From Vulcanimicrobiota bacterium (GTDB lineage: Bacteria; Vulcanimicrobiota; Vulcanimicrobiia; Vulcanimicrobiales; Vulcanimicrobiaceae): DNA of 64,000 nucleotides. The DNA lies in the NCBI GenBank assembly GCA_963833095.1, contig CAWHWQ010000001.1, positions 352,001 to 416,000 on the forward strand. Direction: 5' to 3'. Position 1 is the first letter of the stretch. Every line of letters starts with the position of its first letter. A model generated the notes under the pieces. That model saw only the letters and a list, made by a program, of their open reading frames with translations. It did no database searches and was not told where the DNA came from. Position numbers and translations under genes: made by a program. Positions 2,664-58,637 of the stretch are shown piece after piece.

Positions 2664-3407
2664 ATGTCAAACTCCCGTTCACAACGCCGTCGTCAAACAC
2701 GTGGCGGCTCCGCACCACCGCCCAAACGCGACCCGATGACAATCGTGTACATCAGCGCGGCCGTGCTCGTCGTTGTCGTCGTCGCAATTTTCGCGATCAT
2801 GAACTGGATGCAAAAACAGCAAGTCGCGCAGGCCTACGCGACGCCGACGCCCGCGCCGTCGGCCACCGCCACGTCGAAACCGATTCAACTCGCTGACGGT
2901 GAAACGATCGGGAAGCCCACGTTCAAGCTCTATAGGGGCGCTCTGCCGGACACACCGCAAGGCGGTCAGGGCCAACCAGTCGACGGCATGACATGCGGCG
3001 GCATGGAATACAACACACTCCACACGCACACGCATTTGGCGATCTTTTATCATGGGAAGCAGGTTGCGGTTCCTAGGCTCGTCGGCGCGGCGCCGCTTCC
3101 GCCTCAAGGTTGCCTCTACTGGACACACACGCATTCGATGGACGGCATTATCCACGTCGAGTCGCCCGTGCTCGCGCCCGAAGGCAGTCCGGGATTCCAG
3201 CTCGGCATGTTCTTCGACGTGTGGGGACAGCCGCTGACGCGCGACAACGTTGCGGGACTCAAAGGGCCAGTGATTGCCTACGTCAACGGCACGCTCTACG
3301 ACGGTGATTTGCGCGCGATTCCGCTGCGTTCGCACCAGCAGATCGTGCTCGAAATCGGAACGCCCACCGTGCCGCCGCCGAACTACGCATTCCCGCCGAA
3401 TGACTAG
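2664..3407 (+). CDS. Membrane-anchored conserved hypothetical protein with His-rich motifs
   Basis: One N-terminal TM segment; HTHTHL, CLYWTHTH, GIIHVE motifs. Confidence 0.75.
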   Translation: MSNSRSQRRRQTRGGSAPPPKRDPMTIVYISAAVLVVVVVAIFAIMNWMQKQQVAQAYATPTPAPSATATSKPIQLADGETIGKPTFKLYRGALPDTPQGGQGQPVDGMTCGGMEYNTLHTHTHLAIFYHGKQVAVPRLVGAAPLPPQGCLYWTHTHSMDGIIHVESPVLAPEGSPGFQLGMFFDVWGQPLTRDNVAGLKGPVIAYVNGTLYDGDLRAIPLRSHQQIVLEIGTPTVPPPNYAFPPND

Positions 3408-3600
3408 CAGGGTTCAGCTTCGCTGAACCTGTGGCGTTCGGCCTTCGGCCGATCCGCTCACTTTAGCGCGGCATTTAGTGCAGTCGCCAATTCTTTATAA
3501 TGACTAGCAGGGTTCAGCTTCGCTGAACCTGTGGCGTTCGGCCTTTGGCCGATCCGCTCACTTTAGCGCGGCATTTAGTGCAGTCGCCAATTCTTTATAA
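3401..3600. repeat. 100-bp tandem duplication containing two hairpins
   Basis: 3401-3500 equals 3501-3600 except C3446/T3546. Confidence 0.95.
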
Positions 3601-37669: not shown

Positions 37670-37745
<76 letters not shown>

Positions 37746-37749
37746 TGTG

Positions 37750-37790
37750 CAGGTCCAACAACGGAAACGTTGTTGGACCTGTTTTTATTT
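37750..37790 (+). terminator. Intrinsic terminator after tRNA-fMet
   Basis: CAGGTCCAACAACG-GAAA-CGTTGTTGGACCTG followed by TTTTTATTT. Confidence 0.88.
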
Positions 37791-37905
37791 CCGGTGCGAG
37801 TTGTTGGACCAGTCGGCTCTAGTTGTTGGGCCACGCACCACCCCTTTGTTAGACCGCGATGCGGTCTAAGCATGATCGCAGTCCGCGAGGCGAATATCTA
37901 CGGAT

Positions 37906-38220
37906 TCAGCGGCTTCCCAAGACCCGGGCTACGGGCCGACAATTAGCCCCGAAATTGTTTGGGTATGCGCGAAGCTCAGGGAAGGCTAGCGTCATGGAAT
38001 CATTTAAGAGTATCCGTTGCTTAGCTCGGCTTGAGACTACGCCGTGACGATAGAGCACGCCAAAAAGCAGTTGTGCAATCGAGAGGCTTCGCGGCACGTC
38101 CCGCGGAGCCGTCGAGTCTATGTACTCATCGATAGCTGTGAGCGCCGCGCGAGTCGCCACCTCGACCTCGTCGACCCGATACTCGTCGCTATAAAGATAG
38201 GCTATTACGGTTTCGCTCAA
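37906..38220 (-). CDS. Hypothetical protein, possibly the frameshifted C-terminus of the RelA/SpoT-domain protein
   Basis: TTG start overlaps the upstream TGA; one added base would fuse the two frames. Confidence 0.5.
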   Translation of the reverse strand: MSETVIAYLYSDEYRVDEVEVATRAALTAIDEYIDSTAPRDVPRSLSIAQLLFGVLYRHGVVSSRAKQRILLNDSMTLAFPELRAYPNNFGANCRPVARVLGSR

Positions 38221-38912
38221 GCGGCTCGTCGCACTGGCTGTAGTTCCGCTGGCAACCGCCCTGCTGAAAACAGATCGTTCATGAAAGTAACGAGTTCATT
38301 CTTGGCCGTCACTTCTGGCCAGTTGGACGTTGTAACTATCCCCTCGAGTTCATCGAAGTGCTCGCCTATCGCGTCAAGCTGTTCCACCTGCGCCTTCATT
38401 TGCGCAGCGACACGTACACGCCGCCAACTCACAGTCGGATGCTTATAAACGAGGTCATGCGTAACGGTCTGCCAAGCGTATTCAAAGGCGGACTGAACCT
38501 GGATTTCAAAAGTTAAAGCGTCCAGTGTTTCACGACCTACCGAAGGCTTAAGCGAGCAATACACGCGTGTTCCATCAAACATAAACCGATCAGGTGCCTT
38601 CTTCTTGCTACCCCGAGCTTGGATGTGACGGACGTCGAACACGTCCCTAACGAAATCTAAAACGTGCTCCTCGCGATGAAACGTGGGTATCACGATGGTC
38701 GCAGCATAGACGTCATTCATCGCGCGCCGACTGGCAATGCGACCCGTATCGATTTTCTCAGAGACCGACTCAACCGTCTTGATGCGACCGTTGAAGAGAT
38801 ACAAATTTCCAGTGCAGAAGTGGTCCAAAGTCGACTTCACAATCGCCTCGAGAGCGCGAAATCGATCGAGATTTTCGTTATACCATTGCTGTACTTCGAC
38901 CGGAATGATCAC
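38217..38912 (-). CDS. RelA/SpoT-domain nucleotidyltransferase (small alarmone synthetase-like)
   Basis: GRIKTVESVSEKI, MNDVYAATIV, FEIQVQSAFEYAW..HDLVYK. Confidence 0.75.
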   Translation of the reverse strand: MIIPVEVQQWYNENLDRFRALEAIVKSTLDHFCTGNLYLFNGRIKTVESVSEKIDTGRIASRRAMNDVYAATIVIPTFHREEHVLDFVRDVFDVRHIQARGSKKKAPDRFMFDGTRVYCSLKPSVGRETLDALTFEIQVQSAFEYAWQTVTHDLVYKHPTVSWRRVRVAAQMKAQVEQLDAIGEHFDELEGIVTTSNWPEVTAKNELVTFMNDLFSAGRLPAELQPVRRAA

Positions 38913-39286
38913 CTGAGCAAGTCGTCTAAGCCGCCGGCGAGCAATTGGGTCAGAACAACTGCTCGCGTCTTCCGGGGTCCCGTGTCGTTTGAGGCGGATC
39001 TCGCAGCGTTGTAATACTCAGCCAACACCGGATTCGCCTCGCGGACCTCCCCGTCTTCAAGGACCGATACGAAGCGAGCGAGGCGACCAGCACTCGACGC
39101 AGGGTCCAAAACACCACCGCCCTCAAGTGCCGAATCCACCGCTCCAAAGAGTGAGTAATAGTCGGCCTGGTTTCGCAATCGCGTAGTCCTAAGATTTACG
39201 CCGCCCCCGGATCGTAATATGCGATCAAGCATCTCAAACGAGGCGCGAAATCGTCTTTCGATGGCCGTTTCTGCTTCCCACTCCGA
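38909..39286 (-). pseudogene. 5'-truncated gene; C-terminal part resembling DUF262-type proteins
   Basis: Frame open upstream of ATG 39232 (SEWEAETAIERRFR); RLRNQADYYSLF and AARSASND..PR..R motifs; stop overlaps the next GTG. Family recalled from memory only. Confidence 0.4.
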
Positions 39287-39318
39287 AGATTCGCACTGAG
39301 GCGTGGGTTACCACAGGA

Positions 39319-39594
39319 ATGGCTTTGAGCAACGCTGGCAACGACGGACGAGATTTTGAGCAGCAGTTGGCGCTTGCCCAAGCAATCTACGAGGATCGGA
39401 GTAAGGCGGTTCACGCAGGGTTCGAGCCAGAACACGTGTACCTCGCGCGGAAGATGGCGCTCGGCCCGATAGAGGCAATGATACGAAAGCAGCACGAACT
39501 CCCGACGCGCAGAAAAATCAAGGAGAGGCTAGAGCCATACGTGCCACCAGAGCCCCCAAAGTCGTCTCCCGAACAGACATCTCCCGTATCCTAG
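39319..39594 (+). CDS. HEPN-like (Apea-type) fragment
   Basis: IYEDRSKAVHAG fits Y-x2-RS-x2-VH-x-G (RxxxxH). Confidence 0.5.
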   Translation: MALSNAGNDGRDFEQQLALAQAIYEDRSKAVHAGFEPEHVYLARKMALGPIEAMIRKQHELPTRRKIKERLEPYVPPEPPKSSPEQTSPVS

Positions 39595-40593: not shown

Positions 40594-41013
40594 TTACTCA
40601 AATCGTTTGCCGATGTTGCCGACGCCTTTTCCAGCATAGCGCCCGGCAATGGTGTCGGCGTCGGCCTTGTAAGGTATCTTTCCCGTAACACCGAGTTCCC
40701 GCAACGCCGCCCTGACGCGATTTACATCGGCAGAATCTTCGTAATCATACGTGTAGACACAAATCACGCGGCCGCTTTTTCCTGCACTAGCTGCGCTGGT
40801 TGACATTTTTGCGGTAGAGCCTAGCAGACCACGAATCGTAGCATCGCTAATCTTCTTCCAAACAACCTCTGCGTTGTTTTCCGAGACAAAAATTAGCCAC
40901 TTGCCACCGCGCTCCGCGTGGTCAGGATACGACCCGGCCTTCTTCGAACGGAAGGCCCAAAGCCACCACGGGTCCTCGAAGCGCTCGATGGATTCAGTCT
41001 TGCGCTTACTCAT
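40594..41013 (-). CDS. Bles03/DUF1917-family protein
   Basis: GKWLIFV, AKMST, VICVYTYDYED..DV.RV..LRELG, YKAD..T..G.Y. Confidence 0.78.
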   Translation of the reverse strand: MSKRKTESIERFEDPWWLWAFRSKKAGSYPDHAERGGKWLIFVSENNAEVVWKKISDATIRGLLGSTAKMSTSAASAGKSGRVICVYTYDYEDSADVNRVRAALRELGVTGKIPYKADADTIAGRYAGKGVGNIGKRFE

Positions 41014-41385: not shown

Positions 41386-41843
41386 AGGGTAGAGGTTTCA
41401 CGGCTGGGCGGTCTTTTACCTGATCCGAGAGTCCAGAACTCTCGAAGGTGCGCCAGACAGACGACCTCGGGATCGCGCCCGCTGTCACACAAGGCGTGGC
41501 GTACACGAGTCAGGAGTTCCAAGAGGTGCGGCGCGCTTTGCTGGCGTGCAATGATGCTGACCGCGCATTCCTTCGGCGCTGGCTACTGGCCTGGGTGGAT
41601 GATCGCGGGCGAATCCGCCGCGACGCGGGCCTCTGCCTGATCGCGGTGAGCCTGAACGACGGGGATGAGCTCTTCGCCGTCCCTGGATAGATCGCGACGG
41701 TGTCTACCGATTTCGGTAGTCCGTTGTACCCAGAATTGCGACGACAAGGCCCGGCTACATCGGTGTTTCGGGCACCTAAAGTCGAGAGCGCCAGTAGTAT
41801 GCGGTACGATATACTCGGTAGCGCGCTGAGGAGGCGCTTTGAC

Positions 41844-41981
41844 ATGACACGACTTCTTTACCGATGCGAACGCTGTCGTTTCGAGTTCGCGAGCACCGGC
41901 AAGGTTCGGCCCACGCCAACCAAACTACCCTGCCCAGTACCCGGCTGCACCGGCACTGGCGTGCTCTCCAATCCTGCTTGA
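41844..41981 (+). CDS. Small zinc-ribbon protein (45 aa)
   Basis: GAGGAGG ribosome-binding site; YRCERC..CPVPGC. Confidence 0.55.
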   Translation: MTRLLYRCERCRFEFASTGKVRPTPTKLPCPVPGCTGTGVLSNPA

Positions 41982-42011
41982 CCATCGGGACGACCGTGCT
42001 GCGCGTATCGA

Positions 42012-42905
42012 ATGAGGCTACATATGAGTATCCGCGATAAGGCTGTGCGAACGCTATTCGGTCTCGCCTTGTTCTTCGCTGTGGGGCTCACTTTATCAAG
42101 CGCGGCTACGCCGCCGACGCCGATTCACGTCATTGTGGATTCCGCTCGCTCCATCCCCGTTACGGTGCAGAACTCTACTCATCCCATCCCCGTCGCGGCA
42201 CAAAGCCCCGCGCTCCCCATCCCCGTTGTAGTGCAAAACTTTCCGTTGCCAGATTGGACTTCGGTGGTTACCGCCATCGGGACTGGGGTGTTGGCCCTGG
42301 GTATTGTCATTGCGCTATTGCAATTTCGTCAAGACCGTTTATTCAATCGCGTTCTACAAACTGGCGGTCTAATCAAACTGTGGAGTAAAAACAAGTACTG
42401 GATTGCCAGGAGTCGCATCGACAAGGATTATGACCAAGGGATAAATCGTCAGAGGGTCAACCGCCTGTACGTGGGTGTGAAGCGATTCAAAGGTTTCAAA
42501 GCATTCCGCGAGTTGGAAGTTGATGTGTACAACTTCATTGAGGAATCGACTCGGATGGCGGAACGAATGGATATTTATATTAGCCGTGGTGTTGCCGACC
42601 TGGGTCTGATTGCTGACCACCTTGGCTATGATGTGTTGGAATTGTACTACTGTATCCAGGATGTTCTTCATGAACGTGCCTTGACTGAGGATTTGAACTA
42701 CGAAGGCTTTCGTGATTTGTCCCTTCGCATTCAGCATTATGCTCGTTTACACAAGGATGTTGACATACGTGACGAGTTGGTTTGGGCGGTCTTTCCGCCG
42801 TTGCCATACCGTGGTGGTGACGAATCCGAAGGCTATCGTACGTCGCGCTTCTATCGTTGGCGCTTAAAGCTGGCGCGGCAGAAGTTCATGAAAAAGACTG
42901 ACTGA
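42012..42905 (+). CDS. Membrane protein with DUF4760-like C-terminal domain
   Basis: Signal peptide, IPVxV repeats, TM, helical domain (ERMDIYISRGVAD..YEGFRDL); AT-rich. Confidence 0.55.
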   Translation: MRLHMSIRDKAVRTLFGLALFFAVGLTLSSAATPPTPIHVIVDSARSIPVTVQNSTHPIPVAAQSPALPIPVVVQNFPLPDWTSVVTAIGTGVLALGIVIALLQFRQDRLFNRVLQTGGLIKLWSKNKYWIARSRIDKDYDQGINRQRVNRLYVGVKRFKGFKAFRELEVDVYNFIEESTRMAERMDIYISRGVADLGLIADHLGYDVLELYYCIQDVLHERALTEDLNYEGFRDLSLRIQHYARLHKDVDIRDELVWAVFPPLPYRGGDESEGYRTSRFYRWRLKLARQKFMKKTD

Positions 42906-43028
42906 GCAAAAAGGCGCTCTGTTATCGGTATCAATTCGGCCTCACAATCGACCTATAGAGTTTCGTTAGGGCGAGCGAGCCAATGGGATCATGGTCGAGC
43001 GGTGCTTCCGATGAGGAAAGGAACGAGA

Positions 43029-43518
43029 ATGAAAAGCAGATTTGCTAAGGCACGCTTCGCGCTCGCTGCTGCACTGTTGTTCGTCGTCGCACCCGCGAGG
43101 GCAACAACGTCCGTAACGATGGACGGCGTGTGATGGCAAGAGCTTCCCCCAACGTAAAAGTTTACGTGGTGCAGGGCATGATTACGGGTCTAGCTGAAGG
43201 CCACAACAGCGGCTGGGCCGATGGGGAAAAGTACGTCCGTGACACCTACATCACTTCGTCGCAGCAACGACTCGCGATCCTTCAAAAAGGCAAACGAAGA
43301 AGCTGATGGCCGGGACAAATGCAGAGGCGGCCAATGCTCCTGTATTTTCTAAGGCTTTCGGAACATACATTGACGAACTCGACACCTGGTATGAGGCCCA
43401 CCCGAAAAGGACGATTATCCGGCCTATCGTCCTTTTGGACCAGTGCCTCGCTGACAACGCTACTTTGCCAGCGATAGGACTTTCTTGCGACGACCTCGGG
43501 AAAGACTTCGACAAATAG
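43029..43518 (+). pseudogene. Disrupted secreted-protein gene
   Basis: Purine-rich RBS, signal peptide MKSRFAKARFALAAALLFVVAPARA, in-frame TGA near 43131 and later frame changes leading into ORF 43306-43518. Confidence 0.55.
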
Positions 43519-43826
43519 GCCTTCGGCCCAGGCGTCCTCAATGTCAGAAACAGAATCGCATCATAGCCGTGACAGTGCCCGCACAGCGTCATCGGGGACG
43601 CGGACCGCGTCTCGAAATTGCGGCCCCTACAGTGCTCTTCCGGTGTGCCGGATAAATCCAGGCCGTCGTCAGCGCTGATGGAGCCTGCAGCGCGGTTACC
43701 CCGGGCAGCTAGCGCGCTCCAGGCTTGCGCAGGATTGATACACGGTTGATGATGGGCGTTGAGGGATTCTGGGACGATTCGGCCCACGTATTGATTAGAG
43801 GCCGGGCTTTTCGAGGTCGGTTTTGC

Positions 43827-43958
43827 GGTGGAGCAGTCCGGTAGCCGTTTCGGCGGCGGCCGAAATGCGCGGCGTTTTCAGGCGAATGCCGTAGAAAACG
43901 CATAGTCGTCGGGCTCATAACCCGAAGGTCGCAAGTTCAAATCTTGCCCCCGCAACCA
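43827..43958 (+). pseudogene. Interrupted second copy of tRNA-fMet (attR)
   Basis: 43827-43845 = 37675-37693; 60-bp insert; 43906-43957 = 37694-37745, then A completing CCA. Confidence 0.85.
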
Positions 43959-43963
43959 AAACG

Positions 43964-44005
43964 AACAGGTCCAAAACGGGAACATTGTTGGACCTGTTTC
44001 TTTTT
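43964..44005 (+). terminator. Intrinsic terminator homologous to 37750-37790
   Basis: AACAGGTCCAA...TTGGACCTGTT followed by TCTTTTT. Confidence 0.8.
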
Positions 44006-44015
44006 CGCAGCCGCA

Positions 44016-45707
44016 TCAAGTTGCGGCGGCGAGAGCACTCAAGCGACGCTGCAACAACGCGTTTTCTTCGCGGATCGCGTCAGTTTCAATCGCGGCAATG
44101 GCGATTGCAATGGCTCCGGCGATATTGGCAACGGCTTTGTCGATATCGGGTGGAATCGCCTCTCCGCCCGCGCGGTCGCCAATGCAGAGAACGCCAACGA
44201 GGCGACCGGCGAGGATCATGGGATAAGCCCGCACGCCAGGGAATGCCGTCGCTAGATCGTGCAGATCCAGAGGCTCTTGATGACCGCGCATATCGGCGCA
44301 CGCGGCGTCGTTCTCCTCGATCTCTGCGGGAGCCTCAGGCCATGACGATCCTGCTTTTGCGAGGGCGCCGTTCGCTGCCAAGTAGACGGCGGTCCCGTCC
44401 ACGAGTGCATACTGGCCTACCGTGTCCAAGGTGTCGCGGATGAGCGGCTTCGTCGACGTATAAAACTGCGCCGTCGTCGCATACCGCACAAGAGCCAACT
44501 CCTGCGCATGCCTCGCGCGGAACAAGATATTGTCTACGGCGCGGTCGACCCGAGTATGCACGACCCGCGCGCTGACGACCACCACGAGGACGATGATAAA
44601 ATCTACAACCGCACTTTCTACCCGCGTCAACGCCAGCAGGTACCGTTCGGCGAAGAATTCGAGCGCCGCGAACATCAGAATTAAGATCGCCGAGGTCAGC
44701 GCGTACACCACCGTGCGATTCAGTACGAACTCGATATCGAAGACACGGTGTTTGAGTATGGCATACGTCACCGCAATCGGAATCAGGTCGAGCGATATCG
44801 TGGTGTAAATCAGAAATACGGTAAATGGTATTCTTCCGAGCGAAAAGGCGATCATGGTTATGGCATAGCCCACGCCGCCGATCATGATCGCCGCAAAGAC
44901 GATGCCGACGCGGGCGCGATCTTCCGGTTTCGCAAGACGCAGCGAAAGCACCGACGCGCAAAGAAGCACGAGTGCCCACAAGCCGCACATGACGGCATAA
45001 GCAATTTGCGATCGTTCGGCGATGACGTCGAGCAAGAATCCGGCGACAACGATCGCATCGACTACGCGGATCGCGCGGAGCCTCTGCGGCGAGGGCGCGG
45101 TACCGGGAAGGCGAATCGCAAACGACGCGAGCACCAAGACCGGGAAAATATTGCACAGGTCGCGCAAGATCCAGGCGATGACGGCGAAGACGGGCGCCGG
45201 CACCCAGAAGAGCTGTGCGGCAAAACTTGACCAGCTCAAGCCGCCGCCGCCGAGGAACAGGATCAAGGCGAAAAGCATTGCGCTCGGACGACGGTATCCA
45301 AGATACCCCACAAGTAAGAACGCGAGCGCAGCTGAAAGCGCCACAAAGATTCGCTGCGAAAGGTCGGTAACGCGCGGAACCGTTTCTCGAACGGCGATCA
45401 ATTGGATTCCCGACGGCGTCTCCAATGGCACGCTCACCATCGCGCCTTTCGCACCGTAGCGCAGCCGTATGCGGTCTACCCAGGGGATGACATCGAGTCG
45501 AACGTGCGCCCCCGGCACGATACCGAGCGCCTGCATTTCTGCGCTCGCCCTCGTGACCGTCGCCGCTCGCCACAAGCCGGGGTTGTCTAGTTCAAATGCC
45601 GGATGATAGGCGTCTGGTCCGATGGATACGGCTAGAACCATGGCAAGCCACGTTAGCGCAAAGGCGGGCAGCAGAACACGCGCTGCCCTCTGACTGGACT
45701 CGCTCAT
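44016..45707 (-). CDS. Polytopic membrane protein with C-terminal GAF-like domain
   Basis: Many TMs, YAILKHRVFDIEFVLNRTVVY, PMILAGRLVGVLCIG. Confidence 0.7.
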   Translation of the reverse strand: MSESSQRAARVLLPAFALTWLAMVLAVSIGPDAYHPAFELDNPGLWRAATVTRASAEMQALGIVPGAHVRLDVIPWVDRIRLRYGAKGAMVSVPLETPSGIQLIAVRETVPRVTDLSQRIFVALSAALAFLLVGYLGYRRPSAMLFALILFLGGGGLSWSSFAAQLFWVPAPVFAVIAWILRDLCNIFPVLVLASFAIRLPGTAPSPQRLRAIRVVDAIVVAGFLLDVIAERSQIAYAVMCGLWALVLLCASVLSLRLAKPEDRARVGIVFAAIMIGGVGYAITMIAFSLGRIPFTVFLIYTTISLDLIPIAVTYAILKHRVFDIEFVLNRTVVYALTSAILILMFAALEFFAERYLLALTRVESAVVDFIIVLVVVVSARVVHTRVDRAVDNILFRARHAQELALVRYATTAQFYTSTKPLIRDTLDTVGQYALVDGTAVYLAANGALAKAGSSWPEAPAEIEENDAACADMRGHQEPLDLHDLATAFPGVRAYPMILAGRLVGVLCIGDRAGGEAIPPDIDKAVANIAGAIAIAIAAIETDAIREENALLQRRLSALAAAT

Positions 45708-45754
45708 GCGGATACGTTCGTCACGTATCGAACCTGCACCGCCCTTACCCCGTG

Positions 45755-46099
45755 CTACGTGAGCGGCGAGAGATGCTTTGGTTCGTACAGGCCGAGCTTG
45801 TCGCCACTCGGGAGTTCGAGCGTCGTCACCAAACCCCAGCCGCGGTCGGCGACCGGTGTCGTTTTGATTCCCTTTGTCTCGAGCTGCGCTACCGTCGTGG
45901 CGATATCGTCGCAGATAAGCCACAGTTCATGTTCGGGGTCGTCTTCGGTTTCATGGACCCCGAGTTCGGTCGGCGGTGCGGCGAAAAAGAGTCGCCCGTT
46001 TCCCGCATCGACATAGCGCAGGTCGAGCACGTCCTTGAGAAAGGCGTACATCTCTTTAGCGTGTTTGGTGTAGAAGATCGCGTGCATCCCAGTAATCAT
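45755..46099 (-). CDS. VOC/glyoxalase-family protein
   Basis: ITGMHAIFY, ELWLICDDI, DRGWG, LYEPKH. Confidence 0.85.
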   Translation of the reverse strand: MITGMHAIFYTKHAKEMYAFLKDVLDLRYVDAGNGRLFFAAPPTELGVHETEDDPEHELWLICDDIATTVAQLETKGIKTTPVADRGWGLVTTLELPSGDKLGLYEPKHLSPLT

Positions 46100-46143
46100 G
46101 CTGTAGGTTTGGGTGGCCGGCCACCTAATATCCTAGCCGCAGG

Positions 46144-57428: not shown

Positions 57429-58637
57429 CGGACGCGGCGCCGGGTGCGCCGGGGCTGCGTGCGCCGGTGCCGGATGCGCGGCCGGCTGCGGACGCGCAGC
57501 GGGAGCCGCGTGCGGTTGCGGGTTATACGCGTGCTGGACCGGAGCGGCATGGTACTGCGGCGCAGCGTGTTGCTGGACCGGAGCAGCGTGGTGTTGAACC
57601 GGAGCGGCATGCTGCACCGGAGCGGCATGCTGCACCGGAGCGGCATGCTGCACCGGAGCTGCGTGGTGTTCGACCGGCGCAGCATGTTGCACCGGAGCTG
57701 CGTGATGTTCTACCGGCGCGGCATGTGCCGCGGCAGCGTGTTGAACCGGCGCCGCGTGATGTTCTACCGGCGCGGCATGCGCCGCAGCAGCGTGTTGCGC
57801 CGGAGCCGCGTGATGTTCTACCGGCGCGGCATGTGCCGCAGCGGCGTGTTGCGCTGGAGCAGCGTGTTGCATCGGAGCGGCGTGTTGCTGAGCCGTTGCT
57901 GCATGGTACGCAGGCGGCACATGCTGCGCGCTATACGGGCGCTGTGCGGCGGCAATACTTGCCGCGGGCCGTCCGTGATTGGTCGAAGAACGGAACGCCG
58001 GATCGTTTCGCGCGTAGGTCGCGTGTTGCGTCTGCTGCGCGGTCATCCCGGAACGCCGTTCCGCATAGGCCCGATTCTGCGCGGCACTTGGCCGAGCATC
58101 GATCCCGTGCGGTCCGCCGTTGTACGCGACGCGATTGTTCCAACTGCGACGGGCGGACGGATCGGAATAGACGTAGCCACCGACCACGTTGCTGTTGACG
58201 TTGGTCACGGAGCGATTGTATTCGAAGTCGCGCCCGTGCCAGCGACCGCCGCTGTAACCGTTGCCGTAGTAGCCGTAGCCATAGTTAATGCCACCATAGA
58301 AGCCGACCGACGGACCCCAATATCCAGGATCCCATGCGTACATGCCATCATTGAAGGCCCAGTATCCGGGCGTCCAATACAGGCCGACCGATGGGGCCTC
58401 AACCCAAGTTCCCGGGACCCAGTAGTAGCCGTCAACCGGATCCCACGCCCAATAGCCAGGCTGCCAAATCCAGTTTGGTCCCGGCGCCACCGGCTGGTAG
58501 TAGTCTGGAATTGCCGGTGGCCCGAAGGCGACGGAAATGCCCACAGATACCTGGGCGCTCGCCGGTGCGGGAGCAATCCCGACGAACAACATGCAGGCGA
58601 CCGCCAGCGTGCCGAGGGTTAAGACGAAGCGATTCAT
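57411..58637 (-). CDS. Secreted YXWGXW-repeat protein with His/Ala/Pro-rich tail
   Basis: Signal peptide; WIWQPGYW, YYWVPGTW, LYWTPGYW; GFYGGINYGYG. Confidence 0.88.
   Translation of the reverse strand: MNRFVLTLGTLAVACMLFVGIAPAPASAQVSVGISVAFGPPAIPDYYQPVAPGPNWIWQPGYWAWDPVDGYYWVPGTWVEAPSVGLYWTPGYWAFNDGMYAWDPGYWGPSVGFYGGINYGYGYYGNGYSGGRWHGRDFEYNRSVTNVNSNVVGGYVYSDPSARRSWNNRVAYNGGPHGIDARPSAAQNRAYAERRSGMTAQQTQHATYARNDPAFRSSTNHGRPAASIAAAQRPYSAQHVPPAYHAATAQQHAAPMQHAAPAQHAAAAHAAPVEHHAAPAQHAAAAHAAPVEHHAAPVQHAAAAHAAPVEHHAAPVQHAAPVEHHAAPVQHAAPVQHAAPVQHAAPVQHHAAPVQQHAAPQYHAAPVQHAYNPQPHAAPAARPQPAAHPAPAHAAPAHPAPRPSGRPR
57530..57890 (-). repeat. Coding tandem repeats QHAAPV / EHHAAPV / QHAAAAHAAPV
   Basis: 18-, 21- and 33-bp units, e.g. 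GCACCGGAGCGGCATGCT repeated near 57600-57650. Confidence 0.9.

Follow-up and report, generated by a model that had tools for sequence, protein, structure and literature searches.

In the available sections of a study of Islander-type islands with an anticodon-centred (A) site and a tyrosine integrase (PMC4383910), damage is described only near the tRNA 3′ end, and 5′ fragments lying downstream of the gene were filtered out. Actinobacteriophages with tRNA-dependent lysogeny, as presented in the available part of PMC10865867, have a core of 8-17 bp, the host tRNA being destroyed and the phage tRNA intact and essential; for tRNA-rebuilding phages, the same source tabulates cores of 33-52 bp (PMC10865867, Table 2). 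Here, we describe a small, mobile island in a soil bacterium whose right-hand border is a dead, split copy of tRNA-fMet. We found no description of this arrangement in the open full-text literature searched.

The window, by which we mean the whole 64,000-nucleotide stretch of DNA that was analysed, has one tRNA gene, an intact initiator tRNA-Met(CAT) at 37670-37745 that is the single copy of its kind among the 41 tRNAs called in the assembly. It is followed by ~6.2 kb of lower-GC DNA (54-57% vs ~61%). Two other copies of the right-hand border serve for comparison below: one in G012, a second species of the same genus, and one in L126, a metagenome contig. The features are as follows.

37670..37745, + strand: intact initiator tRNA-Met(CAT) with its native upstream region, which matches that of relatives with an empty site; left boundary of the island.
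37750..37855, + strand: terminator hairpin and three further TGTTGGACC-like direct repeats; these form the left end of a different element, a short-att one that occurs across the family, and are not the split copy's partner.
38217..38912, - strand: cargo gene with a RelA/SpoT domain (PF04607, by Pfam).
39280..39531, + strand: 84 aa remaining of a gene that in L126 is complete (433 aa), a sign of decay.
40594..41013, - strand: cargo gene with a Bles03 domain (PF08939, by Pfam).
41528..43957, + strand: island segment in common with L126, with 0.9% difference.
42012-42905: 297-aa open reading frame (ORF) in the segment shared with L126.
43002-43515: broken copy of a 171-aa gene in the same segment.
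43821..43826, + strand: 5′ strand of the acceptor stem, decayed (its G012 counterpart is intact).
43827..43845, + strand: exact copy of tRNA nt 6-24 (19/19).
43846..43905, + strand: 60-bp insert with hairpin 1 (43846-43867) and hairpin 2 (43872-43901), a putative remnant of a core-proximal attP arm.
43906..43958, + strand: tRNA nt 25-76 plus a terminal A, the displaced 3′ fragment (attR) that holds the crossover region.
43966..43996, + strand: terminator-like hairpin of the type found after the tRNA at empty sites of close relatives.

The original prediction described a tRNA-fMet copy split in the D-stem by 60 bp whose removal would restore the tRNA, and the locus bears this out: nt 6-24 are followed, after the insert, by nt 25-76 at 43906-43957 (52/52 identical), and deleting the insert gives nt 6-76 exactly, the decay being confined to the acceptor 5′ strand. 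The break falls after gene base 24 (Sprinzl C23/U24), in the 3′ strand of the D-stem, with zero bases of the two halves lost or duplicated. Both predicted hairpins form (-28.1 kcal/mol, z -3.4, with 0 of 200 shuffles as stable), the second closed by inverted GAAAAC hexamers. The 19-mer found here would lie within 200 bp upstream of the 3′ fragment by chance with a probability of ~7e-10. The insert is unique in the genome, tRNA-fMet is the one gene of the 41 for which a split copy was found, and tRNA alone is matched in the split unit by Rfam. The split copy makes no tRNA.

Contigs of two peat metagenome runs, which may belong to one sampling campaign, span the split copy (X1, 43298-43953; X2, 43555-43943); relative to the window unit they carry 13 and 8 substitutions, respectively, with one gap each. 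The same insert variant is found in L126, within its island. In G012, the intact tRNA is followed by 5.2 kb of other cargo and then by a split copy with a 71-bp insert that is homologous to the 60-bp insert and sits at the same tRNA position. Independent assemblies therefore carry the split copy, and the arrangement is not peculiar to one assembly. The TAG that had been noted both before the insert and at its end is present in this genome, but it is not conserved, the T at 43903 being absent from L126 and from the X1 and X2 contigs.

The split copy occurs in 2 of the 18 genomes of the genus, and the tRNA site is empty in G010, G011 and G013. At the order level, 3 of 353 genomes matched the split pattern, two of them real; the third, G063, proved to be a normal tRNA. 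Across the phylum, insert BLAST and the junction pattern each identified 2 of 401 genomes, with no insert copies above chance elsewhere; 48 weak insert matches were attributable to GC-rich chance (28 were scanned for tRNAs, seven read by eye). BLAST with the insert thus revealed no common dispersed repeat, and we detected no copies of it in viral contigs, phages or plasmids. The exact junction pattern was absent from viral and metagenome contigs, as was the split pattern from viral contigs. A GTDB-wide search for the split-tRNA pattern gave 37 matches and no further case: L075 is the G012 copy and was not counted as new, three are N-gap artefacts, and the other 33 are explained by 5′ pieces, by tandems or by chance matches ahead of a tRNA. 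In the searches made, the insert is confined to one genus. We conclude that the split unit is a real, rare arrangement.

Other arrangements around tRNA-fMet came to light in these searches. In 14 records, mostly from Dehalococcoidia/Chloroflexota (L042, L044-L050, L053, L057, L062, L064, L066 and L076), the intact gene is immediately preceded by a 5′ piece of tRNA-fMet whose D-loop contains a GC hairpin; in L048, four of these 63-base units stand in tandem. In records from Coriobacteriia and Clostridia (L052, L060, L067-L069, L077, L078, L043, L058, L059 and L072), a tRNA-fMet 5′ half is separated from the intact gene after it by ~30 bp that often include TTGACA; these halves are possibly collapsed 5′-type elements. 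Besides its split copy, G012 has two intact tRNA-fMet genes with similar leaders on separate contigs (L025, 748-824; L034, 2978-3054). The window itself contains, at 3399-3598, a tandem pair of near-identical 100-bp copies with palindromes, past a gene end (either REP-like or duplicated in assembly) and, at 57529-57927, coding tandem repeats of 18-21 bases within a long ORF.

Comparison with L126 indicates how the island end has moved. The window genome and L126 differ at 22 of 2426 positions (0.9%) across the island segment 41528-43957, and at 201 of 2122 positions (9.5%) in the host DNA at 44016-46137, with the switch in divergence at the tRNA 3′ fragment. Moreover, the T-arm of each split copy is the variant found in its own host's gene. 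Since divergence switches at this point and the T-arms are of the host type, the 5′ piece and insert derive from the donor, and the crossover lay within nt 25-76. The 5′ piece and insert thus travel in the mobile end, which crosses over inside the tRNA by either site-specific or homologous recombination. Recent movement between soil lineages is thereby shown for the end of a cargo island that now has no integrase. Homology between the window genome and G012 ends just upstream of the 5′ piece. In all, a unit consisting of the 5′ third of tRNA-fMet, 60-71 bp and the 3′ two-thirds terminates integrase-less cargo islands in three lineages.

The cargo is a decaying mosaic. The G012 island carries RelA/SpoT, TIR and TPR genes, and L126 carries an HNH gene. 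A PF04607 gene is present in both complete islands, those of this genome and G012, with 33% identity between the two proteins over 80 aa only; none is found among the ORFs listed in 6.3 kb of L126. PADLOC gave no clear match for the 10 cargo ORFs of the window. We detected no integrase by Pfam among 25 window ORFs; the three PF00589 matches of the genome lie away from the island, as do those of G012, and a profile built from six integrases found nothing in related loci. Contigs of an RNA run, X19, cover window positions 41528-42063, and 41528 is also where homology to L126 ends. No X19 contig lies over the insert, and no join that skips the insert or island is listed for four runs, although contigs cannot show absence.

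The left end belongs to a different element. The terminator region at 37746-37855 consists of two inverted TGTTGGACC sites plus direct repeats. Such repeats follow tRNA-fMet in 33 of 348 family genomes (a count that takes in the unpublished G226) from 16 genera, and right ends of this short-att family have two TGTTGGACC sites followed by an 11-base tRNA 3′ piece (L212, L219, L026, L220, L213 and L217). We found no integrase for the family in 20 regions of 0.7-20 kb. The left-end repeats are absent upstream of the split copy, and the possibility that they are its element's own arm was ruled out, since they belong to the short-att family. The island is composite, because no 11-base tRNA piece lies inside it. 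The left end of the G012 island is unique (1 of 348 genomes). Where the border had been taken for the usual att repeat of an island, the 52-bp 3′ repeat stands; for the left end, with the repeats of another family, the usual reading is incomplete.

We compared the insert with the arms of known attachment sites. Among viral loci, 41 have this tRNA-fMet block without a C before it; 28 are att sites and 13 intact tRNAs. In all 28 att sites the identity block starts at the same base as the 52-bp repeat, which is therefore ordinary in itself; this block, from nt 25, spans the whole anticodon arm. The last 12 bases of the insert resemble the core-proximal arm of anticodon-class att sites. The hexamer GAAAAC lies 4-8 bases before the core at 10 viral and 19 other metagenome att junctions, sets that were selected by motif and include many related loci. 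Its spacing is clustered, at 4 bases in 13 of 20. Matches to integrase families in Pfam adjoin 7 of the 10 viral loci, and at the other three there is no long ORF closer than 1.5 kb; among the metagenome loci, 12 were scanned and 3 gave such a match alongside. In the viral set that was not selected by motif, GAAAAC or a near variant, the variants being picked post hoc, is present in 14 of 28 att sites. GAAAAC-type tracts may be host-factor sites. A hairpin of inverted hexamers like that of the insert occurs at three related loci. Beyond the hexamer, the best of 54 comparisons with other arms reached z 4.4 (1/1000 shuffles) and the rest 2.3 or less, pointing to a weak likeness; an apparent collinear likeness to the arms of L123, L134 and L137 was not significant (z 2.3 or less).

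A tRNA 5′ piece was found at none of the 28 viral att sites and at 1 of 20 metagenome junctions, which is L126 itself. Apparent 5′ pieces 228 bases upstream in four related phage loci fall within an ORF (three were read). No parent element with a full arm was found. In the attP arms of several phages (L113, L114, L117, L119, L120, L142, L147 and L167), a 9-14 base piece of the tRNA core recurs among the arm repeats, 70-130 bases ahead of the core itself.

Taken together, the findings make the split copy most likely a scar left by recombination and not a functioning RNA. Of the three origins put forward in the original prediction, a nested element that collapsed to a scar fits best. Specifically, we think it probable that an integrase element entered a second tRNA gene and collapsed to 60-71 bp, and that the scar now hitchhikes. 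In our favoured reading, the island belongs to the anticodon class of tRNA islands, the right border is its attR, and its donor end bears this fossil. The history would begin with a second, separately promoted tRNA-fMet gene, free for loss because redundant. In G012, a TAnnnT hexamer lies 13 bases before the first base of the split tRNA; such hexamers are present at 10-15 bases in 8 of 31 native leaders (one of the eight from the unpublished G226), against a background of 2-5%. The leader of the G012 split copy differs from that of the host tRNA. Judged from these leader sequences, the 5′ piece may have come from a separately promoted gene.

A tyrosine-integrase element would have entered this second gene at the anticodon loop, and a deletion running from the D-arm into the P arm of the element would have left only 60-71 bp beside the core. 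Any scar keeping more than ~24 bases of the 5′ half would include a direct repeat, through which it would revert; those that survive would therefore tend to resemble clean insertions, so that a clean-looking junction is less surprising. With the core left intact, excision of the scar and its re-integration as one terminus of a cargo island would have been possible, through an integrase that acted in trans or has since been lost. Alternatively, it may have spread by homologous recombination in the 52-bp repeat. Several observations weigh against a scar. No integrase lies in or near any island to act as the mover. The 5′ piece is missing from the other att sites compared, no parent element with the full arm was found, the likeness of the insert to other arms is weak beyond the hexamer, and homology to G012 ends just upstream of the 5′ piece. 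Lastly, hairpin pairing is kept at 58 of 60 cells (96.7%) in three sequences, with two compensatory and two broken pairs, and all four differences between the insert and that of L126 are at unpaired positions; a neutral scar predicts neither.

These last observations favour the idea that selection maintains the split copy, either as a noncoding RNA of tRNA shape (such as a decoy or antitoxin for the RelA/SpoT-domain enzyme of the island or for a defence protein that cuts tRNAs) or as a structured DNA site for mobility of integrase-less islands. We regard this as rather unlikely. The insert hairpins can pair in all three copies, and the minimum free energy fold of the whole unit in this genome has acceptor, anticodon and T arms. 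Nevertheless, hairpin 2 is not the minimum free energy fold of the insert in G012 or L126, both broken pairs are in G012, two of the three sequences are nearly identical, and the covariation score was reached by 60 of 500 shuffles. A P1-like helix across the 5′ junction was dropped from consideration, as it is seen in the window copy only. Insert identity between species is 86% over 43 bases, while 106 of 282 fourfold sites (38%) differ in the neighbouring gene; selection would account for this, but recent transfer can also explain it. The G012 copy has a terminator as well as its possible -10 hexamer, but the window copy has no promoter-like site. The PF04607 gene common to both complete islands is consistent with a partner for such an RNA, although the two proteins are distant and L126 has none among its listed ORFs; nor does the unit match any Rfam family except tRNA. 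Finally, the tRNA arms are damaged differently in each species: in the acceptor 5′ strand here, and in G012 by three D-loop changes, one anticodon-stem mismatch and one T-stem mismatch. The proposal that the attP is a deliberately interrupted tRNA mimic therefore survives in so far as the mobile end does carry a split tRNA; with halves that decay differently per species, the word "deliberate" is not supported. We consider distinctly improbable a selected, D-arm-expanded tRNA-fMet mimic in the donor end of integrase-less defence-cargo islands, whether it were transcribed to decoy enzymes that attack or sense tRNAs or gave a recombinase acting in trans its structured substrate.

A further origin, quite unlikely, is that a redundant tRNA copy of full length received, precisely in its D-stem, a small non-autonomous hairpin element resembling REPs, MITEs or PATEs. 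The clean break, at which nothing was lost, and the two hairpins would be expected, hairpins are found in the D-loops of dead tRNA-fMet 5′ pieces in 14 of the 37 GTDB matches, mostly Dehalococcoidia, and REP-like repeats lie just upstream of tRNA-fMet in relatives (L015, L017, L019, L023 and L186). However, the insert has one copy in the genome and none above chance in the phylum genomes, viral contigs, phages or plasmids searched, such a copy exists for just 1 of 41 tRNAs, and the 3′ end of the insert matches att-arm junctions. In these searches there are thus no dispersed copies, and there is no conserved target duplication or flanking tetranucleotide of the kind that marks REP, MITE and PATE elements. 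The small palindromic element of the original prediction is not supported on the same grounds, having no second or dispersed copy in what was searched and losing the proposed TAG target duplication in one variant, that of L126, X1 and X2.

A spliced tRNA intron is highly improbable. Its removal would give an exact nt 6-76, and each of the three copies has G as the last base of its insert, but no bulge-helix-bulge can be drawn at the junctions on inspection, the 5′ exon ends in C, Rfam gives no match to an intron family at E up to 5, splicing would yield defective tRNAs, and an intact gene lies 6 kb away. At 60 nt, the insert is also far below the size of a group I intron. Assembly artefact or chance, which a metagenome-type assembly that is 81% complete might invite, is scarcely credible and is already refuted by the spanning X1 and X2 contigs and the diverged copies in L126 and G012.

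As a scar, the split copy offers a snapshot of att sites being reassembled out of arm remnants and host tRNA genes. Were the unit instead both transcribed and under selection, defence cargo would have a new tRNA-like RNA linked to it. Island finders that drop 5′ fragments downstream of the gene would miss this anatomy.

Among known systems, tRNA-dependent lysogeny of actinobacteriophages, in the part of PMC10865867 available, shares with the window island an element that carries cognate-tRNA sequence beyond the core; here, however, with a core of 52 bp, the host gene has been rebuilt and is intact, and the extra copy is broken and dead. The attP sites of IMG/VR phages for tRNA-fMet (L111-L120, L141-L181) share the start of the block and a GAAAAC-type tract just before it, and several have an upstream duplicate of a short tRNA piece, as in the split copy. 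Their duplicates differ in being core pieces (nt 24-37 or shorter) among arm repeats, and the sites differ in having an adjacent integrase, none of them carrying the 5′ third of the tRNA. From Islander-type islands, as the available sections of PMC4383910 present them, the window island differs in being without an integrase, which also sets it apart from anticodon-class tDNA islands, and in having a 5′ tRNA piece 60 bp before the 3′ fragment. With Islander-type islands it shares an intact tRNA upstream and a co-oriented, displaced 3′ fragment downstream, together with empty sites in relatives and a crossover inside the tRNA; and the flanking tRNA with its 3′ fragment, a block spanning the whole anticodon arm, the empty site and the crossover within the tRNA are likewise those of an anticodon-class tDNA island.
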